Shown here: in pieces, positions 32,877 through 33,946 of the stretch
How the letters are laid out: every line of letters starts with the position of its first letter
Numbering within the stretch: position 1 is the stretch's first letter
Source of the DNA: Escherichia coli
GTDB lineage: Bacteria > Pseudomonadota > Gammaproteobacteria > Enterobacterales > Enterobacteriaceae
Strand: one strand, 5' to 3'
Assembly: GCF_016026235.1 (NCBI RefSeq)
Contig: NZ_CP065613.1
DNA length: 64,000 bases
Translations under genes and position numbers: made by a program
The notes under the pieces: model-generated
Seen by the model: the letters and a program-made list of their open reading frames with translations, nothing else
Told to the model about the DNA's origin: nothing
Database searches by the model: none

Positions 32877-33946
32877 TTATTTGATTTCAATTTTGTCCCA
32901 CTCCCTGCCTCTGTCATCACGATACTGTGATGCCATGGTGTCCGACTTGTGCCCGAGAAGATGTTGAGCAAACTTATCGCTTATCTGCTTCTCATAGAGT
33001 CTTGCAGACAAACTGCGCAACTCGTGAAAGGTAGGTGGATCCCCTTCGAAGGAAAGACCTGATGCTTTTCGTGCGCGCATAAAATACCTTGATACTGTGC
33101 CGGATGAAAGCGGTTCACGACGAGTAGATGCAATTATGGTTTCTCCGCCAAGAATCTCTTTGCATTTATCAAGTGTTTCCTTCATTGATATCCCGAGAGC
33201 ATCAACATGCAATGTTGTAGGGATGGCAATTTTTACGCCTGTTTTGCTTTGCTCGACATAAAGATATCCATCTACGATATCAGACCACTTCATTTCGCAT
33301 AAATCACCAACTCGTTGCCCGGTAACAACAGCCAGTTCCATTGCAAGTCTGAGCCAACATGGTGATGATTCTGCTGCTTGATAAATTTTCAGGTATTCGT
33401 CAGCCGTAAGTCTTGATCTCCTTACCTCTGATTTTGCTGCGCGAGTGGCAGCGACCGGGTTTGTTGTTATATGGCCTTCAGCTATTGCCTCTCGGAATGC
33501 ATCGCTCAGTGTTGATCTGATTAACTTGGCTGATGCCGCCTTGCCCTCGTCTATGTATCCATTGAGCATTGCCGCAATTTCTTTTGTGGTGATGTCTTCA
33601 AGTGGAGCATCAGGCAGCCCCTCCTTATTGCTTTAATTTTGCTCATGTAATTTATGAGTGTCTTCTGCTTGATTCCTCTGCTGGCGAGGATTTTTTCGTA
33701 GCGATCAAGCCATGAATGTAACGTAACAGAATTATCACTGTTGATTCTCGCTGTCAGAGGCTTGTGTTTGTGTCCTGAAAATAACTCAATGTTGGCCTGT
33801 ATAGCTTCAGTGATTGCGATTCGCCTGTCTCGGCCTAATCCAAACTCTTTACCCGTCCTTGGGTCCCTGTAGCAGTAATATCCATTGTTTCTTATATAAA
33901 GGTTAGGGGGTAAATCCCGGCGCTCATGACTTCGCCTTCTTCCCAT
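32877..33946 (-). pseudogene. int: Lambda-type integrase Int, frameshifted (two ORFs 33551-33946 and 32877-33569)
   Basis: N-terminal MGRRRSHERRDLPPNLYIRNNGYYCYRDPRTGKEFGLGRD... and C-terminal ...HLLGHKSDTMASQYRDDRGREWDKIEIK lie in different frames; apparent 1-nt deletion near 33585. Confidence 0.85.

Follow-up and report, generated by a model that had tools for sequence, protein, structure and literature searches.

Can the lambda-type prophage in this stretch of Escherichia coli DNA still leave the chromosome by its own means? The question is raised by its integrase gene, int, on the minus strand (33946→32877) of the 64,000 nucleotides of contig NZ_CP065613.1 analysed here (the window), which is present as two ORFs in different frames of 131 and 230 codons. 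A sequence-only reading had noted this split, ascribed it to a single-nucleotide deletion and proposed that the prophage is locked in place, with xis intact and int broken. The split itself is evident from the ORFs (33946..33551 and 33569..32877). The 5' ORF (33551..33946, minus strand) encodes 131 amino acids, i.e. 110 native residues ending in KIKAIRRG and 21 out-of-frame residues (CLMLHLKTSPQKKLRQCSMDT) up to a stop. The 3' ORF (32877..33569, minus strand) encodes 230 amino acids from MLNGYIDEG to the native C-terminus, corresponding to residues M127 to K356 in the native frame. Its ATG has no obvious Shine-Dalgarno sequence upstream.

Solved structures (PDB 1KJK and 2OXO) define an arm-binding domain of Int at residues 1-64, a core-binding domain at 74-176 and a catalytic domain at 177-355. 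On this scale the 5' ORF holds the arm-binding domain and the first third of the core-binding domain, while the 3' ORF holds the remainder of the core-binding domain and the entire catalytic domain including all six catalytic residues (R212, K235, H308, R311, H333 and Y342). The 131-residue product matches Pfam PF09003 (Arm-DNA-bind_1) and, over residues 1-64, PDB 1KJK; the product of the 3' ORF matches PF00589. PF22022/PF02899 are matched by intact relatives, but by neither of the two fragments. The split had been placed between the arm-binding and the catalytic domain. This has to be corrected: the break after G110 and the restart at M127 are both inside the core-binding domain (74-176 in 2OXO), which is thus not contiguous and returns to the native frame only at M127 in a separate ORF.

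The frame is lost at a short homopolymer. At 33618..33621 (minus strand) the window has four G on the coding strand, or four C on the plus strand, where the nearest intact alleles have five (AGGAGGGGGCTG). The run spans codons 109 to 111 (AGG AGG GGG in the state with five G, G5) and the frame shifts after codon G110. The coding strand reads AGGAGGGGCTGCC in the window and AGGAGGGGGCTGCC in E. coli FDAARGOS_943; lambda (J02459) reads AGGAGGGGTCTGCC and has GGGGT instead of G5. Across int and xis the one missing base is the only indel in alignments with lambda and with six relatives, and 33618-33621 is the sole gap against FDAARGOS_943, L025, L032, L027, L029 and L034. Thus the deletion of a single nucleotide was correctly recognized, yet not its position. 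The interval 33551-33600, in which it had been located, comprises the ORF overlap and sequence just upstream, at least 18 nt away from the actual site, and the interval 33570-33600 suggested for the inspection of reads does not contain the C-run either. Addition of one G to int yields a 356-residue Int identical to WP_000533643.1 and to the intact Int of FDAARGOS_943, with complete catalytic residues and three substitutions (H164P, A245T and I248V) relative to lambda Int. Chance is no issue here, since the break of the frame is deterministic and the remainder of the gene shows 100% identity to an intact allele.

The missing base had been described as an A present in lambda. The string ggcag-cccctcc is right and lambda does have the A (GGCAGACCCCTCC), but the haplotype that the window int otherwise matches at each variable site reads GGCAGCCCCCTCC; FDAARGOS_943, L025, L032 and others carry it. 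In a comparison of 21 int sequences, the window agrees at all other variable sites with the G5 haplotype (L001, L025, L026, L028, L032 and L033) and not with lambda. Because of this match we infer a parental C5/G5 state that contracted to C4/G4. The loss is best explained by removal of a G from the homopolymer, not of the T/A of lambda; the resulting string is the same.

The genomic setting of int is that of a lambda-type integrase gene, with the overlapping xis upstream and the P' arm and core downstream. xis (34142..33924, minus strand) is an open ORF of 72 codons, so that the claim of an intact xis held; it differs from lambda Xis by one substitution (G59S), overlaps the start of int as in lambda and has a haplotype identical to that of relatives with an intact int. 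Upstream of and overlapping the xis start, a region at 34146..34175 (minus strand), which we take to be the counterpart of the lambda promoter pI, has kept a cII-type repeat TTGC-N6-TTGC (TTGCGAGTAATTGC) as judged from its sequence. The P' arm of attL (32805..32876), between the core and the int stop, is nearly identical to that of lambda. In the P'-int-xis DNA, identity to lambda, HK97, HK106, 434 and similar phages amounts to 98.2-98.8%, and the alleles of lambda (int/xis/attP, J02459 27724-29078), HK97, HK106 and 434 share the xis-int overlap, the P' arm and the catalytic residues with the window. Unlike lambda, the window has lost one G from a run (G5) that is absent in lambda, its ORF is broken after G110, and the element is integrated in yacH and not between gal and bio. 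In every tested respect other than an uninterrupted reading frame, int is a lambda int allele.

Homology to the lpd-yacH region of K-12 ends at 32804, inside yacH. The 3' part of yacH (32103..32804, minus strand) is severed from the 5' part by the prophage and is called as an ORF of 228 amino acids from an internal ATG. Comparison with the empty yacH of K-12 and FDAARGOS_943, with lambda attP and with the attL of L025 and L032 placed the attL crossover at 32794..32809, where a bacterial overlap-like TTATCAG (32794-32800) is followed by the shared TAAG (32801-32804) and by TTGAC of the phage P' side. The empty site in K-12 and FDAARGOS_943 is CATATTC-TTATCAG-TAAGATGCT, the lambda core is CAGCTTT-TTTATAC-TAAGTTGGC, and the two agree in 13 of 21 positions, with the closest match on the C' side (TAAGATG vs TAAGTTG). 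The window junction reads CATATTC-TTATCAG-TAAG, then TTGAC, and continues into the P' arm. To judge from these sequences, the junction is what an Int-type crossover at a secondary attachment site would leave.

Just outside the C' core-type Int site of attL, position 32808 carries a G>A change (TTGAC vs TTGGC) that is private to the lineage of the window; it is common to the drafts L021-L024, but absent from L025 and L032. The junction including this change was found at 100% identity in these four draft or SRA assemblies. In L025 and L032 the crossover occurred at the same nucleotide (about 8050-8070) in another chromosomal background, with flanks 96.7-98.6% identical; both have the int haplotype of the window in the G5 state and a called Int of 356 amino acids, and their contigs end inside the prophage. 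Among complete RefSeq E. coli genomes the yacH junction was absent. The closest complete chromosome, that of FDAARGOS_943 (99.8-99.9% identity), has an empty yacH and an identical, intact G5 int at the canonical attB. For attR, which is beyond the window, two predicted fusion products with the YacH N-terminus were not on record, and attR/attL DNA patterns had no match in IMG/VR. In the literature searched, no paper was found that names yacH as a phage attachment site. That prophages with a lambda Int occupy the same secondary attachment site in yacH in two chromosomal backgrounds adds a little to what is known of natural integration sites.

The prophage has further lesions. An IS600 of 1264 bp (39950..41213, minus strand), with Pfam matches to orfA/orfB, interrupts kil, a gene of the pL operon, close to its 5' end and is flanked by a 3-bp target duplication. 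It has the orientation of pL transcription and is 99.4% identical to the IS600 of FDAARGOS_943 with no gaps; its flanks abut in L001. An IS4 of 1426 bp (42343..43768, plus strand) is bordered by a 12-bp target duplication (GACACTAAGGTC) at 42331-42342 and 43769-43780. It leaves pL-N contiguous and is located in a hairpin with an 8-bp stem (AACCCGAC...GTCGGGTT), which lies 36 nt beyond the repressor stop and may be the terminator of the repressor transcript. Finally, the antirepressor gene ant (51271..52040, plus strand; ORF6N and ANT/KilAC) is split into ORFs of 138 and 139 amino acids by a contraction of A5 to A4 at 51602-51605. This is the only difference within about 820 nt from the intact 256-residue copy in FDAARGOS_943; an intact 256-residue copy is also present in ten other loci, whereas the split product of 138 amino acids is on record nowhere.

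If the window sequence is taken at face value, int is a lambda-type pseudogene that arose by a real mutation in a decaying prophage. We consider the chances of this reading to be even. According to it, the run of five G in codons 109-111 would have lost one G, most plausibly by replication slippage, and the lesion would mark a step in the usual decay of a lambdoid prophage whose integration in yacH had taken place by an Int-type crossover. IS600 in kil, IS4 beside the repressor gene and the frameshift in the antirepressor gene would be further steps of this decay. Two of these lesions are independently backed by short-read drafts of the lineage, in which the kil::IS600 junction and the right edge of IS4 were found.

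The strongest competitor, to which we assign a somewhat less than even chance, is that the genome truly has G5 and A5 and that both -1 changes are long-read homopolymer errors which survived short-read polishing in near-identical modules present in two copies. Homopolymer-length errors are the commonest residual errors and are often left in repeats after short-read polishing (Polypolish, PMC8812927). In line with such errors both lesions are single-base contractions of 5-base homopolymers, and each is the sole difference from the intact FDAARGOS_943 copy. The lesion in int is located in a module of 1.6 kb that is collapsed as a repeat in the short-read drafts of the lineage, and the same applies to the ant module. 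The drafts never cover the G-run, as their contigs break off at the edges of the int, ead and ant modules; on the int side they end 77 nt (L021, L022) or 30 nt (L024) past the SNP at 32808, i.e. with k-mer-sized overhangs into the repeat. In the records of the lineage, which comprise at least 10 assemblies, neither the 131-residue Int product nor the 138-residue Ant product occurs.

Outside these modules the assembly is clean. Against the short-read drafts of its own lineage the window showed no indel over about 20 kb, almost all of it unique sequence, which speaks for a real mutation but also fits polishing that was effective outside repeats only. Over 32.8 kb of chromosome the comparison with FDAARGOS_943 gave 19 SNPs and 4 indels, none of which breaks a gene; this rate is exceeded in the int and ant modules by two indels versus about one SNP in 2.4 kb, although the detection of frameshifts is biased to modules with an intact comparator. 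The chromosomal differences include intergenic runs of T9 vs T8 and A9 vs A8 (difference sites 7909, 12063, 17900 and 20606). The same comparison also showed an indel of 28 bp in gspE/hofB, of which FDAARGOS_943 has the pseudogene copy, and an in-frame deletion of 12 bp in the gene of a GPH symporter.

On the other hand, several observations are at odds with an artefact. The multi-copy IS600 has no gap against the FDAARGOS_943 copy and the transposase ORF of IS4 is open. Modules common to relatives align at 97-99.5% without indels. The second copy of int in the genome is deduced from contig ends, and a look-up of RexA of the FDAARGOS_943 type gave 16 contigs, none of them from the lineage. Elsewhere, a run of four G (G4) occurs as a genuine allele in nature, and its presence in unrelated short-read assemblies sets the window apart from the residual-error case (PMC8812927), which it otherwise resembles in having single-base contractions confined to repeated modules of a clean assembly. 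As both lesions are located inside intragenomic repeats, they also serve as a warning that what looks like a prophage pseudogene in a finished genome may be an artefact of polishing.

The natural occurrence of G4 rests on public assemblies. The exact 131-residue product is encoded in 10 other public contigs, all of them at the canonical attB beside ybhC, and G4 was found on at least five int haplotypes, the window included (at least four others in public assemblies). These two findings indicate that the contraction is real in nature. Together with a different indel at the same spot in L019, the several haplotypes further indicate that it recurs in nature. It is rare nonetheless, with about 10 contigs in a very large public collection and none among 1,895 complete E. 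coli genomes that have this int segment, an absence that counts against a real mutation in the window. Other breaks of the same int were also observed. In L019 (about 9933) an extra C directly follows the G5 run, in the O157-like L012 and L017 (about 9690) a 4-bp deletion (ATGG) is located upstream, and L027, L030 and L031, which are ipaH-bearing, Shigella-like genomes, have IS insertions in it.

A broader interpretation is that the synonymous change of GGT to GGG, which creates the G5 run in a widespread int allele, has made it a slippage hotspot that repeatedly and perhaps reversibly switches off the excision of lambda-type prophages. Selection could then favour grounding, with the losses of kil and the antirepressor pointing in the same direction, and the G-run would be a simple evolutionary switch for prophage domestication. 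We regard this as a long shot. Still less credit is due to the view that the G-run is a reversible contingency tract, or that Int is made by ribosomal or transcriptional slippage, so that the split gene would be still functional or toggled. The same G5 to G4 change on several int haplotypes, the different indel in L019 and the return from G4 to G5 by one slippage event would suit a switch. Yet the tract has only 4-5 bases, the population frequencies given above are very low and all close relatives have one uninterrupted ORF of 356 codons. As to programmed frameshifting, the sequence from the lesion to the stop contains no X XXY YYZ heptamer. An SD-like spacing that stimulates -1 shifts is known from dnaX and prfB, but the SD-like AGGAGG in int abuts the site and does not have this spacing. 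Phase variation and programmed frameshifting were rejected because of tract length, population frequency and the lack of a slippery site.

We found it hardly credible that the yacH-P' junction resulted not from phage insertion but from an inversion or translocation by which Int joined the attL of a prophage resident in attB to the secondary site in yacH. The element would in that case be a rearranged piece of the chromosome and not a prophage that integrated separately. In favour of this view, attL alone is visible, attR was not recovered and the closest genome combines an identical int module at the canonical attB with an empty yacH. Against it, the immunity, replication and head modules of the attB prophage of FDAARGOS_943 form a different mosaic, L025 and L032 have this junction in another chromosomal background with the prophage DNA contiguous to it, and the contig ends point to the presence of two int modules in the lineage and not to one relocated copy. 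The specific proposal that the window prophage is the relocated FDAARGOS_943 prophage was rejected, because the two are different mosaics.

What would a genuine contraction mean for excision? From the pseudogene reading, translation should yield the arm-binding domain and about 46 core-binding residues, then 21 wrong residues and a stop, and the catalytic part M127-K356 would be left in another frame without a ribosome-binding site. The truncated Int would be unable to bridge arm and core sites, and recombination of the prophage's own attL with attR would be lost despite an intact Xis. It is known from lambda genetics that an Int whose core-binding domain is interrupted cannot recombine attL with attR, and that Xis alone cannot do so either. 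Thus the proposal that the prophage is locked in place stands in part: as assembled, the window encodes Xis but no full-length Int, and the prophage's own Int/Xis pathway would be dead. It goes too far with respect to a possible error in the base call, Int acting in trans, the secondary attachment site and the other lesions. Because the contig-end pattern of the lineage drafts implies two copies of the P'-int module per genome and the closest complete genome has an identical, intact G5 int at attB, Int could possibly be provided in trans by a second int copy. The attL overlap TTATCAG differs from the phage overlap TTTATAC. Mismatched overlaps (TTATCAG in attL, and TTTATAC in attR if kept there) impair excision in lambda even with Int present. 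Moreover, a single slippage would suffice to turn G4 back into G5. Should the frameshift be real, the prophage would be unable to excise by itself, which would be one more step toward the fixation of a nearly complete lambdoid prophage.

Most of the other prophage genes are open. They include the gene of a CI-like repressor with HTH and S24 peptidase domains (43816..44550, minus strand), which is intact, N (antiterminator; 41716..42132, minus strand), AntA, the Ead/anti-RecBCD region, CII, O, P, NinB, Dam, RusA, Q, holin, lysozyme, Rz, terminase, portal and a ClpP-capsid fusion. Because the genes for repressor, N, Q, lysis and morphogenesis look intact, induction would probably still be harmful to the cell; with O, P, terminase, portal and capsid ORFs open as well, the prophage may still be inducible and lethal.

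How does the element compare with known defective prophages? Recombinase defects are an established cause of 'grounded' prophages (PMC6379469). Like the cryptic prophages DLP12, Rac, e14 and Qin of E. coli K-12, the window element combines an apparently defective recombinase with IS insertions and other pseudogenes and is expected not to excise. Unlike them it is at a much earlier stage of decay, with the ORFs for repressor, N, O, P, Q, lysis, terminase, portal and capsid open. A second group for comparison are lambda lysogens with a crossover exactly at the core, an intact P' arm and a partial core match at the empty site, features which the yacH prophage shares. Such lysogens at secondary attachment sites were reportedly described by Shimada, Weisberg and Gottesman in 1972 and by Rutkai et al. 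in 2003. The yacH case differs from them in that it occurs in natural isolates, in at least two chromosomal backgrounds and at the same nucleotide. As assembled, the element fits known grounded or defective prophages and secondary-site lambda lysogens, and its int fits an ordinary pseudogene or an assembly error without new biology; only the secondary attachment site in yacH and the recurrent change at one short G-run are mildly new.

Three further features of the window deserve mention. Between Q and the holin gene, at 53163-53318, the prophage carries genes for tRNA-Asn(GTT) and tRNA-Thr(TGT), and the same pair is present in the attB prophage of FDAARGOS_943. In the nin region (49339-49952, minus strand) there are small ORFs of 101 and 102 amino acids where related prophages have an HTH antitoxin and a HigB-like toxin, a family assignment that is based on the relatives only. 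On the chromosomal side, at 20983-24500 just upstream of pdhR, Hcp (TssD) is fused to a pyocin-S/colicin DNase domain (593 amino acids), and after the fusion come three immunity-like genes together with orphan DNase fragments in repeats of about 700 bp.
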